Part shown: piece after piece, positions 479 to 27,092 of the stretch
Numbering within the stretch: the stretch's first letter is position 1
How the letters are laid out: each line of letters opens with the position of its first letter
Made by a program: the position numbers and the translations under genes
From: Candidatus Dadabacteria bacterium
Lineage (GTDB): Bacteria; Desulfobacterota_D; UBA1144; Nemesobacterales; CSP1-2
Assembly (NCBI GenBank): GCA_963805855.1
Contig: CAWDVW010000002.1
Location: forward strand, 608,001 to 672,000
DNA: 64,000 bases
Direction of reading: 5' to 3'
Notes under the pieces: model-generated
Seen by the model: only the letters and a program-made list of their open reading frames with translations
Databases searched by the model: none
What the model was told of the DNA's origin: nothing

Positions 479-699
479 TGTAGCGGAGGTCTTCAGTCCT
501 CCACCTCTAGAATTAATTCTATGGCGACCTAAAGGTCGCCGCTACAAACTCAACAATCCAAGCACATTATCGCGGCTGGAAGCCGCTCCTACCAGATTCG
601 CAAAGCAATCAAACCTCCGCAGCGCCTGTGCCTTGTGTGTTGCAACTTTACACACCAGCAAGCGTGCCCTGAGCTTGTCGAAGGGACTGGTGTGCTACC
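479..699. repeat. Cluster of GTAG-type REP-like palindromes
   Basis: TGTAGCGGAGGTCTTCAGTCCTCCAC (479-504); ATGGCGACCTAAAGGTCGCCGCTACA (521-546); CGCGGCTGGAAGCCGCTCCTACC (~570-592); CACACCAG..CTGGTGTGCTACC (651-699) carrying an internal insertion. Confidence 0.8.
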
Positions 700-12602: not shown

Positions 12603-13216
12603 TAAAAAAATCCCTGAATCAATTCTCTACTTATTTCACCCTCCCTGATGATTGAGGGTGGAGTTTTGGTCAAATCCACTACAGTCGAACCTTTTGATGG
12701 GTGTAGGCTACCCGAATCAATTATAAGGTCAACTCTAGAGCGAAACGCATCAATGATGTCATTTATATCATATAAATTATTCCTCCCGCTGATATTTGCG
12801 CTAGTAGCCGTTAGTGGTTGTGAGATGTATTCAAATAGCCGTTTCACGAACGGATGGCTCGATATTCTGACGGCCACCTTCCCGGTATCCGCTGTGATCA
12901 GGTCGGGTAATTTTATCTTTTGATTGAGCACAAGGGTTAGTGCACCTGGAAGAAAGCGGTCAATAAGCTTTGAGGCTTGCTCAGTTACATTAGCGACCTG
13001 ATGAAACATTTCAATATCCTTTACCAGCACTGGAATGGGCTTACCGTGAGGCCGACCTTTCACAATAAAAACTCTTCTTACGGATATCTCGCTTAGCGCA
13101 TTGGCACCCAGTCCATAGAGTGTTTCTGTAGGATAAACTATCGTTCCTCCGTTATTTATTATCAATGCCGCGATCTTAGGCGATTCGGGGTTTTCTTCTT
13201 TAATTACCTCAGTCAA
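12602..13216 (-). CDS. tsaC: L-threonylcarbamoyladenylate synthase (TsaC/Sua5/YrdC)
   Basis: YPTETLYGLGA, KGRP..KP, PGALT, TATSANISG, GSTVVD, IREG. Confidence 0.95.
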   Translation of the reverse strand: MTEVIKEENPESPKIAALIINNGGTIVYPTETLYGLGANALSEISVRRVFIVKGRPHGKPIPVLVKDIEMFHQVANVTEQASKLIDRFLPGALTLVLNQKIKLPDLITADTGKVAVRISSHPFVKRLFEYISQPLTATSANISGRNNLYDINDIIDAFRSRVDLIIDSGSLHPSKGSTVVDLTKTPPSIIREGEISRELIQGFF

Positions 13217-13341
13217 TGACTAATCACTCCAATCTCATCGTTAAGCAACAAAACGCGGAATAGCAGGATAATGGTATGATCCGGCTTTCTAATAAATGAT
13301 CTTACCAATCAACACTCTCATTGCAGAATGGTATAGTTAAC

Positions 13342-14445
13342 TCAAATTCTCCACCCGCCATAATAGAATAAGGCCTTCTCATTCCCCAGGATCCCTGAAG
13401 CGTAGTTAAGCCCTACTTCTGGATCAAACGGCATCATGTCAGAACCAAAGATAATACTAGCATTCATTTCATCCAGCATCTTTAGTGGATTTATACTACA
13501 AGCCCTCTCATCTCCCAATGCCTTCTGGTAAGTCTTCATGAATACTACATTAAAGTTAGGTTGTACGCAGAGAGTAACACACATTTCGTTGAGCCTCTTG
13601 ACCTGGTCAGCGTTTATCATCTCAGCATGTTCTATCCTATGTCCTTTTAGCTTAACGTTTGCCATTTCAAAGGAATTTACGGCAGCTTCAATGGCTCCAT
13701 CACCTATCGCATGCATCGAAATTCTCAACCCCTCTTTTTCAAGTCCAGAAACTATGGATATCAGTCGCTTTTCAGAGACTAAAAGATTACCCCTACTCAC
13801 CCTGTCGCAATAATCTTGTTTCAGATAGGCCGTCCTAGCGCCGATAGAGCCGTCAACAAATACCTTTACCCAGCCAAGCTGTATTGACTCGTCCTCTCCA
13901 TAAATGTCAAATAGCTCTAGAATCCGTTCATAATCTTCGTAGTAAGGCATTAAAACGACGTTCAACTGTAATTCTCCCTCTTCCCTTATCATAAAATATG
14001 TACGAGCAATGTTATAATCGACGAAATCATGGACTTCCATAATCCCTCTTGAAAGAGCCTCCCTCTGCGCCTGGAGCAACGGTCTCGTTATATCCTTTGG
14101 CTTCAGTGAAGAGGCAAGATGCCTGAGTAATCCCTCAAAAACATATCCCTTCTCTACATCAAAATTGTGGGATGGTTTCAAATTAAAATCTTCTATTACT
14201 CGATCGTTTATCACTCCAACATGTCCGTCTATTCGTATAAGAACTACGGGGAAAGGAAATCCATTGATGTCAACTTTTGTTATGTTCTCGCCCAGCGACT
14301 CCTCGTCCCAGCCCCAGGCAATTACAGGCTTATCCACCGCGCTTTGAATCATACCTATAAGATCCTTTTTGCTCCTGGCGTTTTCTATAGGAACAGTTTT
14401 AAGCGCAAATAGTTCTAAATGGGTATGTGCATCAACAAATTTCAC
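13342..14445 (-). CDS. Amidohydrolase family 3 (YtcJ-like)
   Basis: DAHTH, RIDGH, KVFVDGSIGARTA, HAIGD, RIEHA, FGSD. Confidence 0.88.
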   Translation of the reverse strand: MKFVDAHTHLELFALKTVPIENARSKKDLIGMIQSAVDKPVIAWGWDEESLGENITKVDINGFPFPVVLIRIDGHVGVINDRVIEDFNLKPSHNFDVEKGYVFEGLLRHLASSLKPKDITRPLLQAQREALSRGIMEVHDFVDYNIARTYFMIREEGELQLNVVLMPYYEDYERILELFDIYGEDESIQLGWVKVFVDGSIGARTAYLKQDYCDRVSRGNLLVSEKRLISIVSGLEKEGLRISMHAIGDGAIEAAVNSFEMANVKLKGHRIEHAEMINADQVKRLNEMCVTLCVQPNFNVVFMKTYQKALGDERACSINPLKMLDEMNASIIFGSDMMPFDPEVGLNYASGILGNEKALFYYGGWRI

Positions 14446-14618
14446 AAACTAAAATATAGCCGATAATGAATCTCTCCGCAGCGAGTTCCAGGCTACCATA
14501 TTAGAAATTCAAAGTCTCAGATGTCAATTTTGGAACCCTGATCGAGGGATTCGTGATCTACCCTGCGGCATGATCGTTCATTTAAGACGTGTAGCCATCA
14601 ATCCCTGCCCCCCAAGCG

Positions 14619-14644
14619 GGTAGCCCACCAGGCTTGCTGGTGGG
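14619..14644. repeat. GTAG REP palindrome (empty counterpart of 651-699)
   Basis: GGTAGCCCACCAGGCTTGCTGGTGGG. Confidence 0.75.
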
Positions 14645-14666
14645 ATAATTCAATGTCTAATGTTCG

Positions 14667-14889
14667 TTTTTAACTTCTTTGTCTTGATACTGAAACGAGT
14701 TCAGCACAGGTACAAAGAAGCAAAAATCAAGGCTACCCAAAAACGCGTGCGTATCGAGCGAATGCGAGATATCTATTAATATAATTAATTAGTTCTCTCA
14801 GTCACTTTGTTCCTTCGAGATGACACTAATGTGTCATTTTCTATACGTCTCCGTTTCTGATTTTTTCAACGCAATTTCTGGAAGGCCAT
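14667..14889 (-). repeat. Long composite intergenic repeat, copy A (related to 21456-21899 and 25231-25555)
   Basis: 14667-14734 equals the reverse complement of 25511-25555 plus a 23-bp insertion; 14837-14889 closely matches the reverse complement of ~25392-25444. Confidence 0.8.
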
Positions 14890-14981
14890 TTAAGTCCTTT
14901 TCATTCGGAAAAGGATTAATGAAAATTAATCTATTCACCGAATTGTAAGAATCTTGTCCCCGAATTATCTACCAGAAACAA

Positions 14982-15049
14982 GTGGAGGACTAAAGTCCTC
15001 CTCTACATTATCAATCATCAAAATGTAGCGGCGACCTTTAGGTCGCCAT
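14982..15049. repeat. REP doublet (same two REP variants as 479-546)
   Basis: GTGGAGGACTAAAGTCCTCCTCTACA and TGTAGCGGCGACCTTTAGGTCGCCAT; the second is the exact reverse complement of 521-546. Confidence 0.8.
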
Positions 15050-15234
15050 CATCCTACCTGCTGGCAATGCTAAGAATTCCCCCGTCATGACAAAAACATT
15101 AATTCGCGACCAAAATGGTATAGCCAATTCATTATGATATAATGCTTTTTTAGAAGCAGTTTAATTTCGAATTGACATGAGCAAACATATCGCTAAACAA
15201 TTCAACGGAGTGGAAAAACCAATTTAGAGAGAGG

Positions 15235-16665
15235 TTGTTTCAAATTTTAGGCAAAGAAGGACTAATCTCCTCTCCCGATGAGCTGATCGCCTACGAGTGT
15301 GACGCGCTTACAGCATACAGCATTAAGCCAATATTTGTAGTCCTTCCAAGATCAACAGAGGAGATTTCCGAGGTTATAAAATTATGCAATAAAGAGAAAA
15401 TACCATTTGTTCCAAGGGGTGCGGGAACAGGCCTCTCGGGGGGCGCACTTCCAACCGAAGAGGGAATAGTTATATCTCTAACACGTATGAATCGGATATT
15501 AGAGATTGACATTGAAAATCAGCGAGTGGTTGTCGAGCCCGGGGTTATAAACGCATGGGTTACTGACGCCGTAAGCAGTAGTGGATACTACTATGCCCCG
15601 GATCCATCCAGCCAGATTGTGTGTACTGTCGGGGGAAACGTGGCCGAAAACTCGGGGGGTGTCCACTGCTTAAAATATGGTGTTACTACGAATCATGTTC
15701 TGGGATTGGAGGTAGTCCTCCCAAATGGCGAAATTGTCGAGCTAGGCGGCAAAACCGCGGATAGGCCTGGCTATGATATCGTCGGGCTTCTGGTAGGCTC
15801 GGAAGGATTACTGGGAATTGTCACCAAGGTCATTTTACGAATAATTAGAAAGCCAGAATCGATCAAAACATTTCTTGCTGCTTTCGATAAAATCGAAGAC
15901 GCCGGTGGCGCCGTTTCCGGAATCACGGCGAAGGGAATAATACCTGCTGGCATGGAAATCATGGATTACTTCAGCATCAAAGCTGTTAATATGGCTATTC
16001 AGGCCGGCTATCCAGATGATGCGGGAGCGATACTCCTGGTGGAGCTAGACGGACCTATTGATGAGATCGAAGCCGGGATTCCACTTGTGCTGGAAGTACT
16101 AAAGGAAAACAACGCAAAAGAGATAAGGATTGCAAAGGACGACGAAGAAAGAGCCTTATTTTGGAAGGGCAGAAAAAGCGCGTTCGCGGCCATGGGCAGG
16201 ATTAGCCCGGATTATTATGTACAAGACGGTGTTATTCCTAGGAGTAAACTTCCCCAAGTGCTTAGAGAGATTAACGTTCTAAGTAAAGAATATGGACTCC
16301 GGGTCGCAAATGTCTTTCATGCCGGAGACGGCAACCTCCATCCCCTCATCCTTTACAATTCGTCTGTAACGGGAGAAACTGAGAAAACCGGAGAGTTGGC
16401 TGGCGATATTTTAAAGGTCTGCGTTGATGCTGGTGGAAGCATAACCGGCGAACACGGAGTCGGATACGACAAAAAACGGTTTATCCCCAGCATGTTCAAT
16501 GAAAATGATTTGGACACTATGAATCTTGTACGATGCAGCTTCGACCCCAACGGACTCTGTAACCCGGGAAAGCTATTCCCAACGCCCCGCACATGCGTCG
16601 AACAAGGAGGTCAAGCCTATGAAATACATCCAATACAAAAAGCGGGAATGGGTGAGATGTACTGA
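15235..16665 (+). CDS. glcD: Glycolate oxidase subunit GlcD (FAD-linked oxidase)
   Basis: PRGAGTGLSGG, APDPSSQ, GGNVAENSGG.HCLKYGVT, HAGDGNLHP, GEHGVG; true start uncertain (see findings). Confidence 0.92.
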   Translation: MFQILGKEGLISSPDELIAYECDALTAYSIKPIFVVLPRSTEEISEVIKLCNKEKIPFVPRGAGTGLSGGALPTEEGIVISLTRMNRILEIDIENQRVVVEPGVINAWVTDAVSSSGYYYAPDPSSQIVCTVGGNVAENSGGVHCLKYGVTTNHVLGLEVVLPNGEIVELGGKTADRPGYDIVGLLVGSEGLLGIVTKVILRIIRKPESIKTFLAAFDKIEDAGGAVSGITAKGIIPAGMEIMDYFSIKAVNMAIQAGYPDDAGAILLVELDGPIDEIEAGIPLVLEVLKENNAKEIRIAKDDEERALFWKGRKSAFAAMGRISPDYYVQDGVIPRSKLPQVLREINVLSKEYGLRVANVFHAGDGNLHPLILYNSSVTGETEKTGELAGDILKVCVDAGGSITGEHGVGYDKKRFIPSMFNENDLDTMNLVRCSFDPNGLCNPGKLFPTPRTCVEQGGQAYEIHPIQKAGMGEMY

Positions 16666-16710
16666 AAGCTTCTTTATTTCAAAACAATCCAAAAATTTCT
16701 TCAATAATTC

Positions 16711-18057
16711 ATGTCAGATTCAATCAAAGAAATATACAACATAGTTGGCAGCAGTAATATTTTCGACGAATCACAGGAGCTTGAAAACTATTCAGTTGAA
16801 GGCAAGGCACCTAGAATCGTCGTGTCCCCAAACACGAAAGAAGAAATCTCTGAAATCTTGAAGATCGCCAATCGAGAGTCGCTATCAGTAATACCGTGGG
16901 GCGGCGGTACAAAAATCGGTATCGGTAATAAGCCGAATAGGGCGGATATCATATTAAGTACAAATAGACTCAACCGAATCATTGAACATAGTGACTCCGA
17001 CCTTGTTGCCACTACAGAGTGTGGCATCAAATTAACTGAGTTCCAGACAGCCCTGAAGGAAAAGAATCAATCACTTCCGATCGACCCCCCACATGTGGAA
17101 CGAGGGGCCACAATCGGAGGAATAATAGCCACCAGTGACAGTGGCCCAAGAAGGCTCAGATACGGGACAGCGCATGGAACAATGAGAGAGCTCGTATTAG
17201 GGGTAAAGATTATTCGTCCGGATGGTGAGATAGCTAAGGCCGGCGCCAAAGTTGTGAAAAGCGTAGCTGGGTACGATATACCGAAACTCTTCGTTGGTTC
17301 TCTCGGTACACTTGGCATAATTATCGAAGCAACTTTAAGACTTTACACAATTCCGGAGCATTCTCTGTCCTGCCTTGCCAGCTTTTCCTCGATTCAGACA
17401 GCCCATGCGACAGCCCTTTCGATCTTAAACTCCTCTCTTACGCCCACATGCCTAGAATTAGTTAATTTGTCTCTATCGGAGTCTCTATCCACAAAGCTAG
17501 AACTAAACCTAAAAAAAAATGCATATATCCTGGCGATAAGATTTGAAAGTGTTGAAAAGGCTGTAAAGAATCAGGCAGCTAAATTAAAGGAAATATCCTC
17601 TAACTACAAAGGCCAGGCATTGATTGTTGAAGGCGATATTGAGGAAAAATTTTGGTATGAAATCACAGAATTTCCTTGGATCAAAGATAAAAACAATACA
17701 GTCGTTTGTAAGACGAGCGTTCTTATTAAAGATGTACCGATACTTTTGGAGAAATTAGAAGATCTTTCAAAAAAAACCGGAATCGAAATTCTTGCATCGG
17801 CGCGTGCCGGAAACGGTGTTTTAATAATATCCCTCGACGGCGATACCCCTAACTTACTTCCGGCCACGAGATCACTTCGGGAACAGGTAAGCTCCTTAAA
17901 TGGAAATATGGTTATTCAACACGCTCCACCTTCAATCAAATCCGAGATTGATGTCTGGGGCGAAATTGGGTCGTCCCTGGAATTAATGAAAAGGTTAAAA
18001 TCTCAATTCGACCCAAACGGGATAATGAACCCCGGAAGATTTGTAGGTGGGATCTAG
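16711..18057 (+). CDS. glcE: Glycolate oxidase FAD-binding subunit GlcE
   Basis: GGGTK, ATIGG, SGPRRLRYG, VVKSVAGYD.PKL..GSLGTLG, FDP.GIMNPGR; lies between glcD and glcF. Confidence 0.88.
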   Translation: MSDSIKEIYNIVGSSNIFDESQELENYSVEGKAPRIVVSPNTKEEISEILKIANRESLSVIPWGGGTKIGIGNKPNRADIILSTNRLNRIIEHSDSDLVATTECGIKLTEFQTALKEKNQSLPIDPPHVERGATIGGIIATSDSGPRRLRYGTAHGTMRELVLGVKIIRPDGEIAKAGAKVVKSVAGYDIPKLFVGSLGTLGIIIEATLRLYTIPEHSLSCLASFSSIQTAHATALSILNSSLTPTCLELVNLSLSESLSTKLELNLKKNAYILAIRFESVEKAVKNQAAKLKEISSNYKGQALIVEGDIEEKFWYEITEFPWIKDKNNTVVCKTSVLIKDVPILLEKLEDLSKKTGIEILASARAGNGVLIISLDGDTPNLLPATRSLREQVSSLNGNMVIQHAPPSIKSEIDVWGEIGSSLELMKRLKSQFDPNGIMNPGRFVGGI

Positions 18058-18828
18058 ATGATTAGGAGAGAACAAAAGGAAGGCTGGTTTCTAATAAATC
18101 AACATGACCATGCAGCCCTTTCGGGACAGATCATGAATTACTGGGGCAATGAAGCCTTTGAACCGCCCGACCCCCAGGATGAAGTCCTTTTTGCAATCAC
18201 CGAACACGATAACGGGTGGAGGGAGTGGGATTCTTCCCCAAGGATTAACAGTCAAACCCGATACCCAATGAATTTCATGGAGATGGACTTTCCTGACCAG
18301 AAGGCTATATGGTCCAGAAGTTTCAGGAGATTTTCCGAGGATCACCACTATGCTTCAGCGTTAATAGCACTTCATTTCAGGGTCTTCAACCAAAAAATAA
18401 TTGACAAAGACGAGGGTAACAGTGAAGCCAGGAGGCTAAATTTTGAAATGAATAAATTCATAGCTAATTCCCTGAATCTGGAATTCTCAAATTCTGGCTT
18501 GCCCCCTCTTCCAAAAAAGGCAAAAATAAATCTAAGGCTAGTGCAGGTCGGCGACATAATCTCTTTGGCTCTCTGCCATGGATGGCCTTCAATCGACATT
18601 GACGCAGCGCCTCTTAACTATGAGGGAACAGCTCTTAAGCTGAAATTGACATCCAGCGATGGTAAAAATTATATAATTAACCCTTACCCATTTTCTCAAG
18701 ATAAACTAAGATTTCAGATAATTGGTAGAAAACTAGGTCAAAAACAATTTAACGGTGATGACGAACTACGGCAATTATTAAATGAATCCAATTTCGAAAC
18801 TCTTGAAGTATCAATCAAGAGTGAATGA
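18058..18828 (+). CDS. DUF3891 family protein
   Basis: MIRRE..GW.LI.QHDHA.LSG..., AI.EHDNGWREWD, YA.ALIALH, D.ISLALC. Confidence 0.82.
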   Translation: MIRREQKEGWFLINQHDHAALSGQIMNYWGNEAFEPPDPQDEVLFAITEHDNGWREWDSSPRINSQTRYPMNFMEMDFPDQKAIWSRSFRRFSEDHHYASALIALHFRVFNQKIIDKDEGNSEARRLNFEMNKFIANSLNLEFSNSGLPPLPKKAKINLRLVQVGDIISLALCHGWPSIDIDAAPLNYEGTALKLKLTSSDGKNYIINPYPFSQDKLRFQIIGRKLGQKQFNGDDELRQLLNESNFETLEVSIKSE

Positions 18829-18835
18829 GAATAAA

Positions 18836-20161
18836 ATGGAAGAAGAGACTGCAACATTTCGGGCGTTTGATGAAATAGACAGACCCAGTCCTGACCTGGT
18901 TAAGGACTGCGTTCACTGTGGATTTTGCCTGTCGGCGTGTCCTACCTATCTGGAAACCGGAAATGAACTGGATTCGCCACGAGGGAGAATCTACCTTATG
19001 AAATCGGCTTTAGAGGGCAAAATACCTATGGGTGGCTCTCTTGTAAAACACCTGGATATGTGTCTCGGATGCATAGCCTGTGAACCGGCCTGTCCTTCGG
19101 GTGTGCAATATTCAAGGCTTATAGAATCAGCTAGGTCTCAGATAGAAAGACGCTATGAAAGACCATTTTCAGACAAGCTTCACCGATCGCTAATCTTTTC
19201 TATTTTCCCCTACTCCAGAAGACTACGACTACTTCTTCCATTACTTTACTTTTATCAGGCGAGCGGACTTAAACATTTGATTCGTAAATCGGGAATAGTC
19301 CGGAGGCTTTCGAAAACGCTTTCAAAAATGGATGACATGCTGCCAACTATCAAATCTAGAGCGCTATTCCCTTCTATGCCAAATGTTGTACATGCAAAGG
19401 GGAAGAAGCGTCATAGAGTCGCACTCCTCACCGGCTGCGTCCAGAGTGTATTATTCCCCGAGACGAATGATGCAACGGTCAGGGTCTTATCTGAAAACGG
19501 TTGCGAGGTCATAGTATCCCGAAATCAGGGATGTTGCGGGGCACTCTCTCTTCATTCAGGAAGATTGTCAGAGGCAAGAGATTTTGCGCGAGCAAACATA
19601 AATATCTTTGAAAGATCAGATTGCGATGCGATTATAGTAAACTCCGCGGGCTGTGGTTCTGCTATGAAAGAATATCGACAGCTTCTCATAGAAGACGAAT
19701 CATACGCAGAACGCGCCGAAAGGATAAGCAACAAAACAAAAGACATAATGGAGTTTTTGGACGAAATAGGGCTGCGTGGTGAACTAAGAGAAGTAAAATG
19801 CCGGGTTACTTACCAGGATGCTTGTCATATCGCCCAGGCTCAGAGGATAAAATCACAGCCGAGAAACATCATCAAGAAGATACCCGGAGTTGAATTCGTC
19901 GAACTTCCGGAATCGGAGCTCTGCTGTGGAAGCGCAGGCATATATAACATGGTAGAGCCTGAGATGTCGGGAAGGTTACTCGATAGAAAGATCCGCAATT
20001 TAAGGGAAACCGAAGCGGACCTACTAGTTGCGGGAAACCCCGGTTGTTTACTCCAGATTCAAATGGGAATAAAACAAAACGGACTGAAGATTAAGACCGC
20101 CCACCCGATTGAGCTCTTGGATTGGGCGTATAGCGGTATTCCACCTGGCTCAGATAGTTAA
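18836..20161 (+). CDS. glcF: Glycolate oxidase iron-sulfur subunit GlcF
   Basis: CVHCGFCLSACPTY, SPRGRI, CLGCIACEPACPSGV, two CCG domains, CCGSAGIYN; start ATG 18836 or GTG 18821. Confidence 0.92.
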   Translation: MEEETATFRAFDEIDRPSPDLVKDCVHCGFCLSACPTYLETGNELDSPRGRIYLMKSALEGKIPMGGSLVKHLDMCLGCIACEPACPSGVQYSRLIESARSQIERRYERPFSDKLHRSLIFSIFPYSRRLRLLLPLLYFYQASGLKHLIRKSGIVRRLSKTLSKMDDMLPTIKSRALFPSMPNVVHAKGKKRHRVALLTGCVQSVLFPETNDATVRVLSENGCEVIVSRNQGCCGALSLHSGRLSEARDFARANINIFERSDCDAIIVNSAGCGSAMKEYRQLLIEDESYAERAERISNKTKDIMEFLDEIGLRGELREVKCRVTYQDACHIAQAQRIKSQPRNIIKKIPGVEFVELPESELCCGSAGIYNMVEPEMSGRLLDRKIRNLRETEADLLVAGNPGCLLQIQMGIKQNGLKIKTAHPIELLDWAYSGIPPGSDS

Positions 20162-20390
20162 AAAACTATCCGAATTTAACACACTTAAACAAACTCCATT
20201 TAGTAGGTCACTATAGATATCCCAAGATATCCCAATTTAGAAGAAGAGCACTCAGTCGTTGCCGAAAAGTCCTTCAACTTCGCCCTGAATTAGATCAAGG
20301 AAAAAGCTGTTTCTTCGCACCAACGGCTATGACAAAACCAATCGTCATTTCGACTGTAAGGAGAAATCTTTGTGTAAAATGGAGTGAAAA

Positions 20391-20501
20391 ATGGTTAGGA
20401 ATACTCAAACTACATTCGTTATATCCAGTGATGAGGCGGAGGACATGCTTAAGAATGGAAAGAAATTCATGGAGAAAATGGTTCATTACTTAAAGAATTA
20501 A
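20391..20501 (+). pseudogene. Possible C-terminal remnant of a HEPN-domain protein
   Basis: 36-codon ORF ...TTFVISSDEAEDMLKNGKKFMEKMVHYLKN resembles the terminal helix of small HEPN proteins; recognition by eye only. Confidence 0.3.
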
Positions 20502-20621
20502 AGACAATTATGCATAATCAGAGCTTGGTGAAGATCGTTCCGTGATTTCCACAAGTATCTAGGGTGGACAAATTATGTCCGAAATTAAAAGTAATCTTAG
20601 TTTAAAAAGAGGTTAAATACC

Positions 20622-20801
20622 ATGAAATCAAAAAACAGAATAGTTTATTCCATTGATGTCGAAGACTTGCAAAGCGTCGCTGATCAGGAATTGGACAGAG
20701 AGCTTACAGACAAAGAAACAGAATTTATTGAAAATCGACTGGGAGATTATGTCGATTGGTATGGAGCGATTGCTTCGGCAATAGGTGATCTGAAGACGTA
20801 A
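20622..20801 (+). CDS. Small acidic hypothetical protein (59 aa)
   Basis: Below the ORF-track cutoff; AGAGGT RBS; MKSKNRIVYSIDVEDLQSVADQELDRELTDKETEFIENRLGDYVDWYGAIASAIGDLKT. Confidence 0.7.
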   Translation: MKSKNRIVYSIDVEDLQSVADQELDRELTDKETEFIENRLGDYVDWYGAIASAIGDLKT

Positions 20802-20860
20802 AAATCGAGCATATAATCTTCCCTTACTCTGATCACTTGTATAAGGTCAGCAGAACTCTC

Positions 20861-21268
20861 CTACCCTTTCAAATTTTTCTGTATTTTTGATAAGATAAAT
20901 CTGGAAAGTTCTTCGTCCCCGAAAGTGCCGACTCTGATCGTAATTTCCGTAATATTGTCGCCTACCCTTTTAAGGCTTATTCGCACCTTCTTGTTATCGG
21001 CCGTCATCGCTTCGAGTTTTCCAGCGGTTACGTCGCTATATTTGTCGGTTACCACCAGTTGCATCTGATCGACTGCTTTTTCCGTAGCCTTCCATACTTT
21101 AGGCACATTATAAGCCTCGGTAGCCTTCAATTCCCCCTTGATGTACGCTATCGTTCCGGCACCTGCTGCCGCACCTGCTGCTCCTCCAACAGCAGCAGCA
21201 ACACAACCGTTATTAATAAGTGGAATAATTCCAAGCAATGCTATTAGTAGCCATTTCTTCGACTTCAT
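20861..21268 (-). CDS. DUF3568 family lipoprotein
   Basis: MKSKK + hydrophobic stretch + NGC lipobox, Ala/Gly-rich segment, IRVGTFGDEELSR; ATG 21268 preceded by AGGAGG. Confidence 0.82.
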   Translation of the reverse strand: MKSKKWLLIALLGIIPLINNGCVAAAVGGAAGAAAGAGTIAYIKGELKATEAYNVPKVWKATEKAVDQMQLVVTDKYSDVTAGKLEAMTADNKKVRISLKRVGDNITEITIRVGTFGDEELSRFILSKIQKNLKG

Positions 21269-21455
21269 TAATTCCCTCCTTTCGGTAGAAATGATATACA
21301 TTCACTGTGTACAATTGAACAAGAGACGTGACGTGAAATTCTGGATAATGATAATCTCTTTACTCCCTCGATGTCAAATCTGGTATGTGTATATTTGAAA
21401 TCAATAAAAAACCCTCCAACAATGAGTATCAGCGCATGAACACATGGTCTCTCGA

Positions 21456-21899
21456 GTCATTGCGAGCAGCCCAAGGGGACGAGGAATCTAAAAAGGGAAG
21501 CGATCGCTTCAATTTGTTTCGCAAATTTCGCAATGGCGCGACTGATGTTCATTCTTTCACCGGCATTCCAAAAATTGTGTTAAGAAAATCGCAATTGCTA
21601 TTGTCATCTCGAAGGAATACTTCGAAGTAGCTCGGTACAGGCTCCGTGAGAAATCCATTTTCCGACCGCCTTTTGTCATTTCGAATGAATATGAGAAATC
21701 TTTCCTTTGTTTTTTGCATTTACCAACTCAACTACTAGATCTCTCACATCCGTTCGAGATGACATGTTGCGTAGGTTCGATATGACAGGGTTTGGACAGC
21801 CTAGTCCTGAGCGCCGTCGAAGGATTGCTTCTTTGTACCTGTGCTGAACCATGTCGTGACGTTAGGTCAGCATCTATTCAGTACCAAGACAAAGAAGAT
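21456..21899 (+). repeat. Long composite intergenic repeat, copy B, with several nested palindromes
   Basis: ~21500-21590 matches ~25333-25421; 21791-21899 matches 25504-25550 with insertions; nested TGTCATTTCGAA..GAGAAATCT / AGATCTCTC..TTCGAGATGACA elements. Confidence 0.8.
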
Positions 21900-22073
21900 A
21901 AAACGCTAAGCGACTGATTTCGCTAGTACAAGTCAGATTCTCTTACCAGTATTCTAAGTAACAAAATCCGATCCCGACGCAAGCCCTTAATTACATCAAA
22001 CTTAACTCAAGGTAACATAATCGATGCAGCTCTATTTAAATAAGGTCGACAACTACGATATATACATCAAATA

Positions 22074-22952
22074 TTGGAACGAAGAGAAATGAATACGATT
22101 ACACTCCTTTCACCAGCCAAAGTCAATCTAACCCTCGAAGTTCTGGGCAAAAGGCCCGATGGTTATCATGAAATCAGGTCGATAATGCAGCCAGTCGATT
22201 TATTTGACGAGGTTAAAATCGATGTGCTAGATGGTAAAGGAATAGCTATTGAAACAAAGGGACCTAAGATCCCAGCCGGAAACCGCAACCTGGCCTGGAA
22301 AGCGGCAGACATCTTTATTAAACAATCTGGCCTAAGAGCAAAGGTTAAAATTTTTATCAAAAAGTTAATTCCAGCGGGAGCGGGGCTCGGCGGTGGAAGC
22401 TCTAACGCAGCCAGTGTCCTGGTGGGCTTAAACAAAATAACAGAAAAACTGAGCCAAAATGATTTAATGGATATTTCGCCAAAAATCGGAGCCGACGTTG
22501 CCTTTTTTATAGGTTGCAGGAGTGCAGTTGCCGAGGGAATCGGAGAAAAAATCACCACGATAAGAGATTTACCCCTCTTTAATTATATTCTCGTCAATCC
22601 CGGATTCGAAGTCTCGACCCGGGATATCTACAAACACTGGGATAGGTTTCAAACAGGGGCAAAAAAACTAGAAAGCTTAGGAGAAACTATAATCATTTTC
22701 AGAAAGGGAGAATTTCCCTTGCGAAATGATTTGGAGCAAGCCGCTATCGATCTTTACCCTGAGATAAAAGCCCTAAAGGAGTTATTGTTCAGCCTGGGGA
22801 TTGAAGACGTGTCAATGACCGGAAGCGGACCAACCGTATTCGCAGTTTTCAAAGGGGAGAAGGAGGGATTAGACATCTATAATTACCTGAAAACTAGCAC
22901 GAAATATAAGGTTTTTTACGTGAAGGGAATCTCAGGATGGCACAGGTTGTAA
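22074..22952 (+). CDS. ispE: 4-diphosphocytidyl-2-C-methyl-D-erythritol kinase
   Basis: PAKVNL.L.V.GKRPDGYHE, IP.GAGLGGGSSNAA, GADV.FF, MTGSGPTVF; start may be ATG 22089. Confidence 0.96.
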   Translation: MERREMNTITLLSPAKVNLTLEVLGKRPDGYHEIRSIMQPVDLFDEVKIDVLDGKGIAIETKGPKIPAGNRNLAWKAADIFIKQSGLRAKVKIFIKKLIPAGAGLGGGSSNAASVLVGLNKITEKLSQNDLMDISPKIGADVAFFIGCRSAVAEGIGEKITTIRDLPLFNYILVNPGFEVSTRDIYKHWDRFQTGAKKLESLGETIIIFRKGEFPLRNDLEQAAIDLYPEIKALKELLFSLGIEDVSMTGSGPTVFAVFKGEKEGLDIYNYLKTSTKYKVFYVKGISGWHRL

Positions 22953-23233
22953 TAACCTTAATATCTTAACCTTTCACCCGTTAAGGATTACCCTGCCGTT
23001 TTCGCCACCCAATAGTTGAGGTGACACTCAGCATGATCACCCTTCCACCTTTCGACTAAGCTCAAGCGTCAGTGTGAACGGCTTTACTTTTTCCGAATAT
23101 CCCGAAACATGGTAGAGACGCAAAATCATACGTATATACCTAGAATCTCAAGTTTGCTCGGAAAGTGAAAGCTTGGTAACATAAGAAACGCTTATTTCCC
23201 CAAAATCAATTTACGTTTATAATCAATCACAAA

Positions 23234-23308
23234 TGGGGCGTCGTCTAATTGGCAGGACTCAGGCCTTTGGAGCCTGCTATGGTGGTTCGAGTCCACCCGC
23301 CCCAGCCA
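23234..23308 (+). tRNA. tRNA-Gln(TTG)
   Basis: TGGGGCG/CGCCCCA acceptor stem, CAGGC-CTTTGGA-GCCTG anticodon arm, GGTTCGAGTCC T-arm, encoded CCA. Confidence 0.96.
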
Positions 23309-23427
23309 AATTGCACTCTAGAATTACACACTTATTTTATATAACGACCACAGTCGGTTAACAACTTATTGCAATAAACTAACAGTTTTCTATTTCGCTC
23401 ATTCAACTTTTTGAGTTTCAAAAATCC

Positions 23428-24120
23428 TTACGACTTGTTTTTAAATAACCTCTCAAACTCTTCTAACAGCTTAAGATGAGTATCAGAATCCGTGGGAGAC
23501 ATGGTATAAAATCTTTTTTCTTCGAGAGGTGTATCAACCCTGGGTTGGATTGAAAAGTAAGTTGGATATAAGGTTATATTATGAGAAATTAAACTAGGAT
23601 CTTTAATTTGATAAGATATATCCGTATAAAATATCATTCCTTTAATATGAGCCGTAGTTAATTTTGATGATAATCCTTCCATCACAGTTTTATTCAAATA
23701 ATTATTAAATTTATCCGCAAATATATTTCTAAAATCCACATCTAAATTCACTGAACATACCGTTTGTTCTATTTTAGTTAATGGCTTAGAACTCCGAAAC
23801 ACTTGATTTTGATCAAACTGAACCACAATTCCTTTAAGAGATTCATAAAAAAGATTCGCTTCTTTAGAGGTTCCGACAAAGGTGAACCATATTCTCTTTG
23901 GTTCGATGCTAAGTGAATCGATTACCTTTATGCTTTTACCTATCTTTGTTTCTCCCCTTAAAAAATTAACCTTGTCCGCTTGTGACGAGTCAACTTCTTT
24001 GATATTAAACGCCTGCCTAATCTTGTTTATTGCAGACTCGGCATTAATGGATCTGAACGGAATAAGGTCGATCGGGAATATCCTATCTTGCGAGACCGTT
24101 AAATCAGTGATATTTTTCAT
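23428..24120 (-). CDS. Hypothetical protein (230 aa), third gene of the TA operon
   Basis: Intact AT-rich ORF 21 bp downstream of the antitoxin; no family recognised. Confidence 0.8.
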   Translation of the reverse strand: MKNITDLTVSQDRIFPIDLIPFRSINAESAINKIRQAFNIKEVDSSQADKVNFLRGETKIGKSIKVIDSLSIEPKRIWFTFVGTSKEANLFYESLKGIVVQFDQNQVFRSSKPLTKIEQTVCSVNLDVDFRNIFADKFNNYLNKTVMEGLSSKLTTAHIKGMIFYTDISYQIKDPSLISHNITLYPTYFSIQPRVDTPLEEKRFYTMSPTDSDTHLKLLEEFERLFKNKS

Positions 24121-24141
24121 AATTTATTTTCAAAGCTTGAA

Positions 24142-24744
24142 TTAATGAAGATCTTGCTGCATGACTCGTCCTCTCAATACTCCTAGGGGATTTTCAAATG
24201 GAAGATTAGAAAAAGTCGCAGATTTTCCACGAATAACGGACACATCCCTATTTGAAAAATCGATAATTCTAGCAAATGACGGATCTTGTGGTAAATGACG
24301 CACTCGCAAGGATAAGAGTTGCGATTTATTTTCCAGCTCTTTTAATAAGTCTTCTATTTTTTTTACTTGTTCGATAAGAGGTTTAATTGATGATTCTATC
24401 CTATTTCGATTATCTAATTCTCTTTCTATACCCTCCTGAATCCAATTCCTCATAAGAGTTAAATATCCGATACCTTTTTTAATAGCAATTTCCTTTGCTT
24501 TCTGTACCTGCCTTGGATTTAAACGTAAACTTATTAGCTGCTTTTTCTTATGCTCCTCCACTTTCTTTCGTAAATCCCCCGTAATTTCTACTTTAACATC
24601 TTCTAACAAGCCCTTAACTATCAGTTCAGCTGCACTGTGACTATCCCAAAATTCGGCCTCCTCGTCTTCTGTTTTAAACTTGGGTATCTGGTCAAGGGAT
24701 TTTAAATTTTTTATCTTTTTCTTTTTACTTGACTTTCGTTTCAT
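24142..24744 (-). CDS. CopG-type (BrnA-like) antitoxin with a long C-terminal extension
   Basis: IPKFKTEDEEAEFWDSHS and RHH-like ISLRL....K.IA.KKGIGY.TLMR.WI.E; ~90 extra C-terminal residues; ATGA overlap with the toxin. Confidence 0.85.
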   Translation of the reverse strand: MKRKSSKKKKIKNLKSLDQIPKFKTEDEEAEFWDSHSAAELIVKGLLEDVKVEITGDLRKKVEEHKKKQLISLRLNPRQVQKAKEIAIKKGIGYLTLMRNWIQEGIERELDNRNRIESSIKPLIEQVKKIEDLLKELENKSQLLSLRVRHLPQDPSFARIIDFSNRDVSVIRGKSATFSNLPFENPLGVLRGRVMQQDLH

Positions 24745-25019
24745 TTCTTTAACCCCCTCTTTTTTCTAAAAAGCCTTTTTTCTGATGTATTCATTTCCCT
24801 TGCCGTAATGATTCGTGCCGTTCCGTTTTTAAAAGCAAAAAAAACAGCAAGGTACTTCCCCGAATAACTACTCCCTAAAGCAAGGTATCTATCTTTCTTA
24901 ACTTTGCGATCAAAGTGGTAGTTTTCAAAGACAGATTGAACCTCTTCTCTGTCGACATTATGTTTCCTTATAATTTTTGCGTTAACTTCGCGAGTACAAA
25001 CAATGTCTTTTATCTTCAA
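24741..25019 (-). CDS. BrnT-family (RelE-fold) toxin
   Basis: KHNV..EEV..VF, RYLALG....G.YL.V.F, ARIITAREMN.SEKR motifs. Confidence 0.88.
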   Translation of the reverse strand: MKIKDIVCTREVNAKIIRKHNVDREEVQSVFENYHFDRKVKKDRYLALGSSYSGKYLAVFFAFKNGTARIITAREMNTSEKRLFRKKRGLKK

Positions 25020-25095
25020 TGAGAGATTTTACCCCACGACTCACCCACTACCTACATGATAAAAGAGTTCACTAATTCTGAATGTAATACATCGT

Positions 25096-25140
25096 ATATA
25101 CATTTTGTGTATATTATAAGTGTAAATCTGAGTTTATCAA
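25096..25140 (-). promoter_or_regulatory. Putative TA operon promoter with an overlapping palindromic operator
   Basis: Minus strand TTGATA (25140-25135)-N16-TATAAT (25118-25113); inverted repeat ATATACA-N5-TGTATAT at 25096-25114 over the predicted start site. Confidence 0.65.
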
Positions 25141-25230
25141 GTAGATAAGATATTTCGATAGCTAGCAACTAACAAATTGGCCAACAGTTTACTTACGCTT
25201 GATGGCAACCATAAACAAACAGTGATTTCA

Positions 25231-25555
25231 GTCATGCTACGAGCCCCGAGTACTTTGACCATTCGATACTACTCAGAACTCAGGATAAACTCCGTCGAAG
25301 GGGACAAAGCGCTTTAAAACGGGAAAAGAAGGAGATCGCTTCAATTTGTTCCACATATTTCGCAATGACTTGAATGAATCTCATTATTTCATTGGCATTC
25401 CAAAAATTGCGTTAAGAAAATCAGGAGCGGAGGCGTAAAGAAAAATTTGTGGGTTGCGGTCGGATTAAATTTTTCAGTCGAAGAGAGTGATTTTTAGCAA
25501 ATTTTTGGACAGCCTTGATTTTTGCTTCTTTGTATCAAGACAAAGAAGTTAAAAA
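25231..25555 (+). repeat. Long composite intergenic repeat, copy C
   Basis: Shares blocks with 14667-14889 (reverse) and 21456-21899; carries the empty form of the CTTCTTTGT..ACAAAGAAG palindrome. Confidence 0.8.
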
Positions 25556-25710
25556 AAGTCATACATATGAAGAAAATACGTTTGAAGAGGATCACCATGA
25601 AATACTTCGCTATTACAACCAATGACCGCTAGAGTACAAGACTGGCTGGTACCGGCAATGACAATCCAAGACCTGTGGCGAGCCACGGGGAATTCCCTGA
25701 AAGCGGCATT

Positions 25711-25745
25711 AAAAAACTCCCGCCGGCCGGAAGCAGGCGGGGTTC
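25711..25745 (-). terminator. Rho-independent terminator after the dsbA-like gene
   Basis: GC-rich stem CCCGCC/GGCGGG followed by a T6 run on the minus strand. Confidence 0.6.
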
Positions 25746-25773
25746 TTAATTTCGCAAAATTATCAAAGGCTAA

Positions 25774-26838
25774 CTACTTATTTTCAGAAAGGGCTACATC
25801 TATTGCCGATTTCAACCCCTGCGGGTTAGCGCCAGGAACGATCATTCCATTAACCACGAAGGTCGGAGTTGAACTTACACCTATAGAGCGCGCTTCTTCT
25901 GTTTCATTCTGAACTCTTTGGGCAGCCTCTGGGGAACCTATACATTTATCAAACTCATCGGTATTCAATCCTATTTGTTTCGCAAAACCATTAATCTCTT
26001 CTTTTGCATTCTCTGCAGTCAAATTTGCCTGATTTTGAAACAATAAGTCATGAAGCTCCCAAAACTTATCATTTCCCTGTTCGCTAGCGCACACCGATGC
26101 TATGGCCGCGTCCCTCGCCCAATTATGGATGGGAAGAGGCAACTGTTTATAAGCGATTTTAACTTTGCCATCATATTCTTTTAAAATCTGGGGAATAATA
26201 TCCGCTCCTCTCTTACAGAAGGGGCATTGAAAATCAGAATACTCAACAACTGTTACTTTTGCATCTTCTGCACCTTTTACAGGGACATCTTCAAGTGAAA
26301 TTTTACTCATCGTCTCTTTAAGCGGATCAACAGTTGTGTCAATGAATTCCGCCAAGATGATATATTGGCCATCTGTGCTTATGGTTACTGGGATTGGTTG
26401 ATTTCCAAGTGGTACACTTCCGGTCTTGATACCTTCAATCGGCGTATCTTCAAAAGTTTCAAGTGACGCAACATCTCCCATAATCAAATATCTTCCGTCA
26501 CTGCTAATAAGAAATGTTACTTCTCCAGATCCCCTTGCTGACTCGATAACGAATTGACCCTTTCGCAAACCCTCAACTGGGCTCTGCTCGAATCCTTTAA
26601 CCTGTATATTTGCGTCCGCTGGCATACGAGCACCCAACCTCTTTTTTATAAATGACTGCAATCTCTTCTGTTCTTCGGGAGTTACGTTGCCCGCAGGCTC
26701 TTTCTTGGCCTCTGAAGTCGTTTCCTTTGTTTGGGGCTGTTCTTCCTTTTTTTCACCTTGATTTGTACAGGCTGTAAATGTTAAAAGGACTACTACAAAG
26801 AAATACAAAAATAGACCTTTTAATATGATCTTACTCAT
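25774..26838 (-). CDS. DsbA-family lipoprotein with DsbC-like N-terminal domains
   Basis: Lipobox FTAC; EYSDFQCPFC; GVSSTPTF.VNG; ATG 26838 preceded by GAGGAG. Confidence 0.88.
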   Translation of the reverse strand: MSKIILKGLFLYFFVVVLLTFTACTNQGEKKEEQPQTKETTSEAKKEPAGNVTPEEQKRLQSFIKKRLGARMPADANIQVKGFEQSPVEGLRKGQFVIESARGSGEVTFLISSDGRYLIMGDVASLETFEDTPIEGIKTGSVPLGNQPIPVTISTDGQYIILAEFIDTTVDPLKETMSKISLEDVPVKGAEDAKVTVVEYSDFQCPFCKRGADIIPQILKEYDGKVKIAYKQLPLPIHNWARDAAIASVCASEQGNDKFWELHDLLFQNQANLTAENAKEEINGFAKQIGLNTDEFDKCIGSPEAAQRVQNETEEARSIGVSSTPTFVVNGMIVPGANPQGLKSAIDVALSENK

Positions 26839-27092
26839 TTGCTTTCTCCTCACGGCAATTGATTTGGTCATTCGACCCATATACGCGATAAACCTATATT
26901 ATAAACTAATATTTGCCTATGTCACAAAATATAGAACGCAGCATCGGAAAATAGACTTATAATCGGATACTTCTACCAGATTACATTCGGCATAGCAAGT
27001 TGGTCAAAATCACCGAAGAACCAAATAGAAATAGGTCGGGAATGCTTTAAAAAGTTTTATACCTTAATTCAAGACCTATCCAGATCTGGTTC

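Follow-up and report, generated by a model that had tools for sequence, protein, structure and literature searches.

In the genome of an uncultured sediment bacterium, Candidatus Dadabacteria, one intergenic palindrome occurs in three lengths within the 64,000-bp window analysed here (C2:608001-672000 of a 3.11-Mb assembly in 9 contigs): empty, enlarged by 23 nucleotides (nt) and enlarged by 46 nt. The 23-nt unit that makes up the first step, which we call X1, recurs in other hairpins, other genomes and other phyla, and its core is that of the hairpins flanking a family of small GIY-YIG nuclease genes. The reading that we favour, though with reserve, is that units of 23-24 nt related to the hairpins that flank Ssn-like GIY-YIG genes enter the loops of hairpins and then spread passively. 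Below, G000 denotes the genome of the window, G001 and G002 genomes of the same genus, and G007 the next outgroup.

Results

One palindrome, three lengths

The first-pass annotation of the window had claimed three states of one hairpin (0, +23 and +46), and all three are present as written, at the sites that we call C, A and B:

Site C, 25525-25548, + strand: host palindrome, empty, with arms CTTCTTTGT/ACAAAGAAG of 9 bp each and the loop ATCAAG
Site A, 14674-14720, - strand: host palindrome, singly filled (+23), from the sequence and the predicted fold
14688-14710, - strand: unit X1 within site A, CCTGTGCTGAACTCGTTTCAGTA, 23 nt, made of a CCTGT tag, the GCTGAA/TTCAGT hairpin and A
Site B, 21828-21897, + strand: host palindrome, doubly filled (+46), from the sequence and the predicted fold
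21838-21883, + strand: two-tier 46-nt unit within site B, with X2 inside the loop of X1
21850-21872, + strand: inner unit X2, the middle 23 nt of the site B insert, made of a CATGT tag, a degraded CCTGAC/GTCAGG hairpin and A

The empty site had been placed at 25522-25548; the palindrome itself stands, at 25525-25548, but the extra TTG at the left lies outside the arms. Relative to the empty palindrome, the +23 state is an exact insertion, with GTA ambiguous at the X1 junction. The +46 state equals the +23 state plus 23 nt only if two substitutions beside X2 are allowed (TCGTTTCAG in X1 alone versus TCTATTCAG in the two-tier form), and the X2 copy of the window is 3 positions off the family consensus CATGTCCTGACGATAGGTCAGGA. 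The predicted folds of the empty, +23 and +46 states as single-stranded DNA (ssDNA) have one, two and three stacked stems, respectively, at -7.0, -9.7 and -13.5 kcal/mol, with z at about -4 each.

Such strong predicted folds in intergenic positions would suit functional structures, i.e., terminators, RNA stabilizers or protein-binding sites whose stem length is under selection and which are not mobile, and roles of this kind have been proposed for repetitive extragenic palindromic sequences (REPs) (PMC3733652). We find this hardly credible for the hairpins studied here. No T run follows the palindrome at any of the three window sites, an Rfam search of window positions 13000-27000 with E up to 1 returned no match except a tRNA gene, and the 23-mer stands in unrelated hosts and phyla, in both orientations, with a presence that varies among close relatives. 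The tRNA gene (RF00005, 58 bits) lies at window 23234-23305, between sites B and C.

Across the genome, the lengths of the inserts are discrete. The palindrome holds the commonest 18-mers of G000 (51 copies), and a search with exact arms found 18 palindromes in that genome, with loops of 6 nt (13), 29 nt (3), 52 nt (1) and 53 nt (1). When one mismatch per arm was allowed, 269 right-arm anchors were obtained, 187 of them without a left arm within 130 nt. The resulting 82 arm pairs had loops of 6 nt (n = 60), 29 nt (n = 5), 52 nt (n = 3) and 53 nt (n = 1), which corresponds to 60 empty, 5 +23, 3 +46 and 1 +47 palindromes; the remaining 13 were chance pairs or diverged, truncated or rearranged copies. 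A looser palindrome pattern, searched on both strands, matched 74, 48, 40 and 108 times in G000, G001, G002 and G007, respectively, and the same pattern read backwards as a control matched 0 times in the four genomes. Since the palindrome accounts for the commonest 18-mers and the reversed pattern finds nothing, the pattern is not due to chance. Among the 150 matches listed of these 270, the palindromes were 24, 47, 48, 69 or 70 nt long, one long chance match excepted. Other copies of the two-tier unit measured 45-47 nt. The lengths thus fall near 23 and 46, as had been predicted, and do not form the continuous series that would speak against insertion. An apparent "+4" palindrome at C5:174884 was considered as an excision footprint and rejected, being a 5'-truncated copy that starts inside X1.

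A family of units in unrelated hosts

The units share one design, in which a 5-nt tag is followed by a stem of 6-7 bp opening with (G/C)CTGA, a loop of 3-5 nt, the complementary stem and one tail base. X1 reads CCTGT-GCTGAA-CTCGT-TTCAGT-A and the consensus of X2 reads CATGT-CCTGAC-GATAG-GTCAGG-A, so the resemblance of the inner unit to the outer one that had been pointed out is real: both consist of C(C/A)TGT, a (G/C)CTGA... stem, a loop, the complementary stem and A. The inner unit of G099, from another family of the order, is CCTGT-CCTGAA-TTCGT-TTCAGG-A, with a total that is again 46 nt, and a 24-nt type, X3, reads CCTGT-CCTGAGC-N4-TCGAAGG-A and has tandem G-A mismatches in its stem. The stems show compensatory variants (GCTGAA/TTCAGT, CCTGAA/TTCAGG and CCTGAC/GTCAGG). 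To judge from these sequences, the X1, X2 and X3 inserts form one family of 23-24-nt micro-repeats, each with a hairpin of 17-18 nt. A more general family, CMTGT followed by any perfect hairpin, was rejected, with 74 matches in G000 against 32-69 for seven control tags; as this generic scan was not enriched, the family is defined by its (G/C)CTGA stems and not by the tag alone.

The palindrome is one host among several. For the CCTGT units of G000, 25 seed matches were found, 20 of which could be delimited, and arms were scored within 6 nt of the unit. Flanks pairing over at least 6 bp surrounded 14 of the 20 units; the background rate, taken from 5000 random positions, was 9.5%. The hosts in this genome comprise at least four unrelated hairpins, namely, the palindrome, CCACCAG/CTGGTGG, GGGAACGC/GCGTTCCC and TCACGAG/CTCGTGA, which upholds the earlier proposal that a noncoding unit of about 23 nt sits in the loops of other hairpins, those of its own family included. 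The following hairpins belong here within the window:

14624-14644, + strand: hairpin CCCACCAG-GCTT-GCTGGTGGG, empty; other copies have an X3-type unit in the loop
651-694, + strand: CACCAG/CTGGTG hairpin copy with a 24-nt X3-type unit (663-686) in the loop
21806-21823, + strand: X3 core CCTGAGC-N4-TCGAAGG just 5' of the palindrome; in the G001 orthologue, two more units are nested in its loop
15030-15047, + strand: unrelated hairpin GGCGACC-TTT-AGGTCGCC, empty in the window

The CCACCAG/CTGGTGG hairpin is empty at 14624-14644 and filled at 651-694 and elsewhere. The hairpin at 15030-15047 is empty in G000, and holds one X3-type unit of 24-25 nt in G001. In G002, its loop contains a nest of three levels, and a reversed X1-like unit makes up one of them. 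The hairpin is absent in the outgroup G007, which therefore gives this series of none, one and three units no polarity. GGCGACC-TTT-AGGTCGCC occurs twice in the window (523-540 and 15030-15047), on opposite strands and empty in both places.

Within the order, 15 of 101 genomes have the X1 pattern, 13 of them clearly and two doubtfully. G001 has the most X1 copies (52). The exact pattern CCTGTGCTGAACTYGWTTCAGTA is present in at least 118 stretches, and the records that carry it are labelled as Bacteroidota of many genera, Balneolaceae, Rhodothermales, Gammaproteobacteria, Alphaproteobacteria, Nitrospirota-type bacteria, Scalindua and Thermodesulfobacteriota. One metagenome-assembled genome labelled Thermodesulfobacteriota has the same palindrome as G000 and also the same second insertion site, described below. 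Flank statistics across phyla were taken from the 80 loci listed of these at least 118, with 8000 positions in the same loci as the control. The 80 loci hold 82 delimitable X1 copies in 46 flank contexts. Arms of at least 6 bp lie around 38 of the 82 copies (control, 11.3%) and arms of at least 8 bp around 28 (control, 2.2%), and 29 copies are inside GTCAY-tagged hairpins, 18 of them in the orientation of the host and 11 reversed. The base directly 3' of X1 is T in 66 copies and A in 16, with no G or C (L099-L178), and it belongs to the target wherever an empty copy is known. One such case is a locus in Aureibaculum (L177), where two tagged hairpins, both containing X1, enclose a GIY-YIG gene and a third copy of the hairpin, 50 bp on, is empty. 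The filled site reads GTCATTCAG^X1^AGCGAAG, and the filled and empty hairpins at this locus are exactly 23 nt apart, with no duplicated bases.

The host repeat and the two-tier unit

The palindrome is part of a longer repeat, three copies of which hold the sites described above:

25391-25556, + strand: dispersed intergenic repeat of about 165 bp, from alignment; the palindrome is its 3' end module, and a second insertion site lies near its 5' end
21562-21905, + strand: repeat copy holding site B, much remodelled inside
14670-14895, - strand: repeat copy holding site A; in G001 and G002, the orthologous place is without the entire copy

This host repeat has 21 other long copies in G000 and 24 short copies that comprise the last 44-58 bp. 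The second insertion site, AAATTGCG^TTAAG, is empty in 26 copies in G000 and filled by the two-tier unit at C2:49221, C2:265079, C6:104936 and C5:284646; its flanks pair over just 3 bp, and its sequence resembles the junction in the palindrome loop, GTA^TCAAG. Both sub-families of the host, with GTTARAAAG... or AATAAAAAATTAAAC... downstream, include empty copies as well as copies filled with X1. A host repeat of about 390 bp in G001 (C31, L082) is cleanly absent at G000 C5:747292, and inner modules are swapped between copies. Given this presence and absence with a clean junction, together with the swapping of modules, we class the 165-bp host repeat itself as mobile and as a mosaic.

Two further observations concern the surroundings of site B. 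The sequence 5' of the palindrome (window 21794-21835 and copies such as G000 C7:642691) is either CCTTG-ATTT-TTG or CCTTG-TCCTGAGCNNNGTCGAAGGG-TTG; these forms differ by 16 nt, with no clean insertion, and orthologues in G000 and G001 differ both ways. In contigs from three of four public runs, window position 20371 is joined to 21726 with 19 other letters, so related populations seem to lack the 1354-bp stretch adjoining site B or to have it replaced.

The first-pass annotation had called for a comparison of orthologous loci in relatives, and there, empty and filled copies do differ by exactly the unit. The orthologue of site B in G001 (C98), with the same flanking genes, contains X1 only (+23), compared with +46 in the window, and the X3 unit at the G001 locus holds two nested units without a counterpart in the window. 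At a second shared copy, X1 is present in G001 (C78), and G000 C7:496607-496722 is without exactly 23 bp. A third copy shared by G000 and G001 is X1-filled in both, and a fourth is two-tier in both (+45 and +47).

What did not hold is the view of the doubly filled state as a clean second insertion at site B. The two-tier form has the two substitutions mentioned above, has diagnostic bases of its own and multiplies ready-made. Nine X2-like copies were found in G000, and the composite's own right side follows all nine, while the left half of X1 precedes seven. The X1+X2 composite was seen in only the three genomes of this genus, where it occupies two kinds of site, the palindrome and the non-hairpin second site of the 165-bp repeat, and it makes up 19 of the 36 X1-pattern matches listed in G002 and 7 of the 39 listed in G001. 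It is the diagnostic bases, the second, non-hairpin site and the share in G002 that indicate multiplication of a ready-made form, and the composite is thus a two-tier unit that arose on one or a few occasions and was multiplied afterwards. The difference between site B and its G001 orthologue goes back either to a conversion event with another copy as donor or to an empty ancestor that was filled independently in each genome.

A quite improbable explanation is that the long form is ancestral and that the shorter forms arose by deletion, through slippage at the GTA repeat or loss of an unstable hairpin. Hairpins are easily deleted, the X1 junction has a repeated GTA, and the composite junction TCTATTCAG is also found in the downstream gene flank of G028, from another family of the order, and so must be old. 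However, X1 alone is present in the 13 clear genomes and in many phyla, the composite being confined to the three genomes of this genus, and the composite minus X2 is not X1, since two bases differ. In addition, empty palindromes number 60 and filled ones 9, unrelated hosts have empty copies of their own, and there are other junctions without a direct repeat. With the short form far more widespread than the long one, the long form is unlikely to be ancestral.

Nuclease and transposase genes

G000 has three small GIY-YIG genes and ten Y1_Tnp matches, none of which lies inside C2:608001-672000; the window itself encodes no candidate enzyme of either kind, as had been stated at the outset. Two Y1 matches of the IS200/RAYT type, at C2:679691-680008 and C2:684678-684989, are 7.7 and 12.7 kb past the end of the window, with flanks that contain no units. 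The flanks of the GIY-YIG and Y1 genes of G000 carry other hairpin types (GTCATTCCCGCGG... and GTCATCTCGA...), and one X3-type unit is found 1184 bp from a GIY-YIG gene.

In relatives, a GIY-YIG gene of 106 amino acids lies between inverted hairpins of the form GTCAY-(C/T/G)CTGAAC-TYG-TTTCAG-ATCT at 14 of 14 loci of close homologues (57-100% identity), and the core of these hairpins, CTGAAC-TYG-TTTCAG, is the core of X1. The protein consists of a single domain (PF01541, E = 5.5e-15, residues 4-77), and the nearest solved chains are UPF0213 GIY-YIG proteins, a weak match. Several of these gene flanks carry nested 23-nt units, one of them, in G078, in reverse orientation, and outside G000, the CCTGT-tagged unit appears beside such genes only nested inside the gene-flank hairpins (L049, L053 and L177). 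The upstream flank in G028 is GTCATGCTGAAC(CATGTCCTGAATTTATTTCAGGA)TTGTTTCAGCATC, which becomes identical to the plain hairpin of other loci once the 23 nt in parentheses are taken out; the boundaries of the insert (GCTGAAC^23 nt^TTGTTTCAGC) are exact, with no duplication. A second small GIY-YIG type (WVYILRCADGSYYTGHTDNLEKR...), found in G002 (C92, L033) and G007 (C333, L034), is flanked by inverted CCGTTCAC-CCTGAG...TCGAAGG-GTGAACGG hairpins, which have the X3 core, and another X3 unit is nested in one of the flanks in G007.

Neither of these flank-associated types is present in G000, where the best match to the first type has 44-48% identity and is to the other GIY-YIG genes of that genome. 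The G001 copy (L065, C68:1439-1724) is broken by a stop after 73 codons, the rest being in another frame. A close homologue of the gene is found in 5 of the 13 clear X1 genomes (one of them broken) compared with 9 of the 88 other genomes of the order, a co-occurrence that is suggestive only, because kin are not independent.

The units could instead be moved by a Y1/HUH enzyme of the RAYT or IS200/IS605 type and not by a GIY-YIG enzyme, with CCTGT in the role that GTAG has in REPs. Enzymes of the HUH class join DNA as well as cutting it. A 5' tag beside a hairpin, the lack of target duplication and single-stranded targets recall what is described for REP/RAYT and IS200/IS605 systems (PMC3733652 and PMC3116915), and ten Y1_Tnp matches exist in G000, two of them not far beyond the window. 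However, no units or palindromes lie within 1.5 kb of those ten loci, the tag is neither GTAG nor CGTC, and the core of the hairpin is that of the GIY-YIG gene flanks. We therefore regard a Y1/HUH enzyme as unlikely.

Discussion

On the reading that we favour, a unit of either orientation would enter another hairpin or palindrome at its single-stranded loop or centre, with no target duplication, through a trans-acting enzyme working on single-stranded DNA. Units would also enter each other, giving rise to two- and three-tier hairpins, and a unit or composite, once formed, would be multiplied passively as part of its host repeat or passed on by gene conversion from one host copy to another. We infer all three elements of the first step, that is, insertion as the origin of the differences, a single-stranded substrate and an acting enzyme. 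Exact borders, a position at the tip of hairpins, both orientations and the absence of duplication point to a reaction on single-stranded DNA. The best candidate for the enzyme is a GIY-YIG nuclease of the Ssn type, because its hairpins share the core of X1, and we put it forward tentatively; in G000, where no cognate nuclease gene is present, the unit family would be an orphan. A template switch of the polymerase between hairpins is a possible mechanism, and passive spread with the host repeat is probably behind most copies in G000. The wider proposition, that the CCTGT-tagged 23-nt hairpin is a pan-bacterial micro-transposon moved or copied by a small GIY-YIG system into single-stranded hairpin loops, among them those of its own copies and of the hairpins that Ssn-type nucleases recognize, strikes us as doubtful.

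Several results weigh against this picture. Within the palindrome, X1 copies share one position and one orientation (7 of 7 in G000 and all those listed in G001 and G002), and in G001, the TCG and TTG loop subtypes are each confined to sites of their own. Passive spread accounts for this as well as insertion does, and many of the copies in G000 may have been carried along by the host repeat or distributed by gene conversion. The pair formed by G001:C78 and G000 C7 also differs at two other modules; three modules thus differ at once, in agreement with replacement by gene conversion. Targets other than hairpin loops exist as well, as the second site of the host repeat has no flanking complementarity, and the junction that the composite has in common with the G028 gene flank makes the composite old. 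As to the enzyme, a GIY-YIG nuclease cuts DNA and, to our knowledge, is not known to join it. X1, X2 and the palindrome are all missing within 1.5 kb of the ten Y1 matches and three GIY-YIG genes of G000, a search of that genome for a gene bracketed by units found none of the nuclease type, and tblastn with the two flank-associated GIY-YIG types against the 80 listed loci gave one match (L177), which was not clearly above chance, striking as the gene arrangement at that locus is. The degenerate motif published for Ssn-related repeats, HGTCWYN(0-2)YYVSBRHN(0-5)WNVSBRGN(0-2)RNCYNB, matches X1 in the palindrome, the composite and the empty palindrome on neither strand, and it gave 0 matches at four gene-flank loci of relatives. 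Contigs of four public runs covering 14300-25700 break at repeats, and none spans the three sites with a skip of 23 or 46 bp, which makes them uninformative on polymorphism in the population.

Part of this evidence suits an explanation by copying, for and against which the arguments seem to us evenly balanced. The three states would be variants of the 165-bp repeat, each form going back to one old filling followed by copying of the repeat and gene conversion, with nothing inserted at the three sites themselves. The uniform placement of X1, the confinement of each loop subtype to one site in G001 and the 19 of 36 listed copies in G002 that are composites with the diagnostic bases are in line with this, as are the whole repeats that are present or absent between G000 and G001 and the X1-differing pair that differs at three modules. 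Copying leaves unexplained, however, the first arrival of a unit in a loop and the identical 23-mer in 46 flank contexts from many phyla. It also sits badly with an unrelated single-copy hairpin whose loop, at one orthologous place, has no unit, one unit or three levels of them depending on the genome, and with X1-filled and empty copies in both host sub-families. Copying is compatible with entry into loops followed by passive spread, because it equals the second step of that sequence of events.

The spread of repeats of 20-30 nt is an open question, and this locus offers a clean, testable system in which to address it, with exact borders, empty targets, two- and three-tier products, filled and empty alleles in sister genomes, conservation across phyla and a candidate nuclease family. 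If the micro-transposon proved to be real, it would represent the smallest class of mobile DNA and provide the first candidate enzyme for small dispersed repeats, and the Ssn hairpin families would be both hosts and parasites of each other. If the link to the nuclease holds, a new nuclease family would be tied to genome-wide remodelling of hairpins, which would explain the stepwise-growing hairpins that confuse the annotation of intergenic regions, small RNAs and repeats. If that link fails, the locus retains its value as a well-documented example of how modular repeats decay in an uncultured bacterium from sediment.

Comparison with known systems

The units are similar to the Ssn-related motifs (NTS/SRM; Chenal et al. 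2025, PMC11893778), which are hairpin repeats of 20-50 nt whose inverted copies flank a GIY-YIG gene of about 100 amino acids. They share with these motifs an inverted repeat of 20-50 nt that, according to the predicted folds, forms an ssDNA hairpin, and the flanked gene of the relatives encodes a single GIY-YIG domain in a protein of the size of the Ssn family (about 90-110 amino acids). G000 itself contains 41 matches to the degenerate Ssn-related motif, 26 of which are of the canonical GTCATTCCCGC type. Unlike these motifs, X1 and X2 carry the tag CCTGT or CATGT instead of GTCAT, and they are found in loops and not beside genes. Ssn is described as binding its hairpin only as ssDNA and making its cut a few nt upstream, with loop identity dispensable for cleavage and extensions at the loop position tolerated (PMC11893778). 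The main text of that paper, its supplementary motif lists aside, makes no mention of nesting or loop insertion, and it leaves the spread of the hairpin repeats unexplained. The core motif, as six 15-mers, is printed in no paper of the full-text collection searched, although supplements may list such variants.

Compared by description only, the units are also like the small dispersed repeats (SDRs) of the Nostocaceae, in that dispersed, hairpin-forming units of 21-27 nt are nested in repeats, in palindromes and in each other and that homologous loci are heterogeneous. We know of no enzyme for either, nor of any mechanism put forward for the SDRs since 2008. In that year, Elhai et al. (Genome Res 18:1484) reportedly presented SDR1-8 as hairpin repeats of 21-27 nt that are nested and vary between homologous loci. 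In the account given in PMC5861425, the HIP1 palindrome is a target into which SDR5 inserts, and no SDRs occur beyond the Nostocaceae. X1 differs from them in its presence in many phyla, with no Nostocaceae record among the 80 loci listed of the at least 118 that carry it, and in a core that matches GIY-YIG gene flanks. The idea of a cyanobacterial connection was dropped, as HIP1 occurs only 55 times in G000.

With the GTAG- and CGTC-tagged REPs, the units have in common that they are small palindromic repeats with a conserved 5' tag, and REP families that lie inside small or long palindromes, with empty copies, have been described (Di Nocera et al. 2013, PMC3733652). They differ in the CCTGT/CATGT tag and in being single 23-nt hairpins and not dimers, and self-nesting of 23-nt units is not among the arrangements described in the relevant parts of PMC3733652; in G000, there is also no adjoining RAYT gene. 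REPINs with their RAYTs and the PATEs of IS200/IS605 elements are likewise gene-less hairpin repeats without target duplication, for which a single-stranded mechanism in trans is presumed (PMC3116915). However, a REPIN consists of a doublet, and a PATE has a different hairpin at either end and spans about 100 nt or more, in contrast to the single 17-nt hairpin found here. Miniature inverted-repeat transposable elements and PATEs alike have two ends, formed by terminal inverted repeats or by distinct left and right hairpins, and a length of about 70 nt or more, and the unit has 23 nt and one hairpin. By its looks, it would rank among the smallest mobile DNA elements known, and its tag, strict 23-nt module, self-nesting and spread across phyla set it apart from the SDRs, the tagged REPs and the Ssn-related motifs, to which it is closest.

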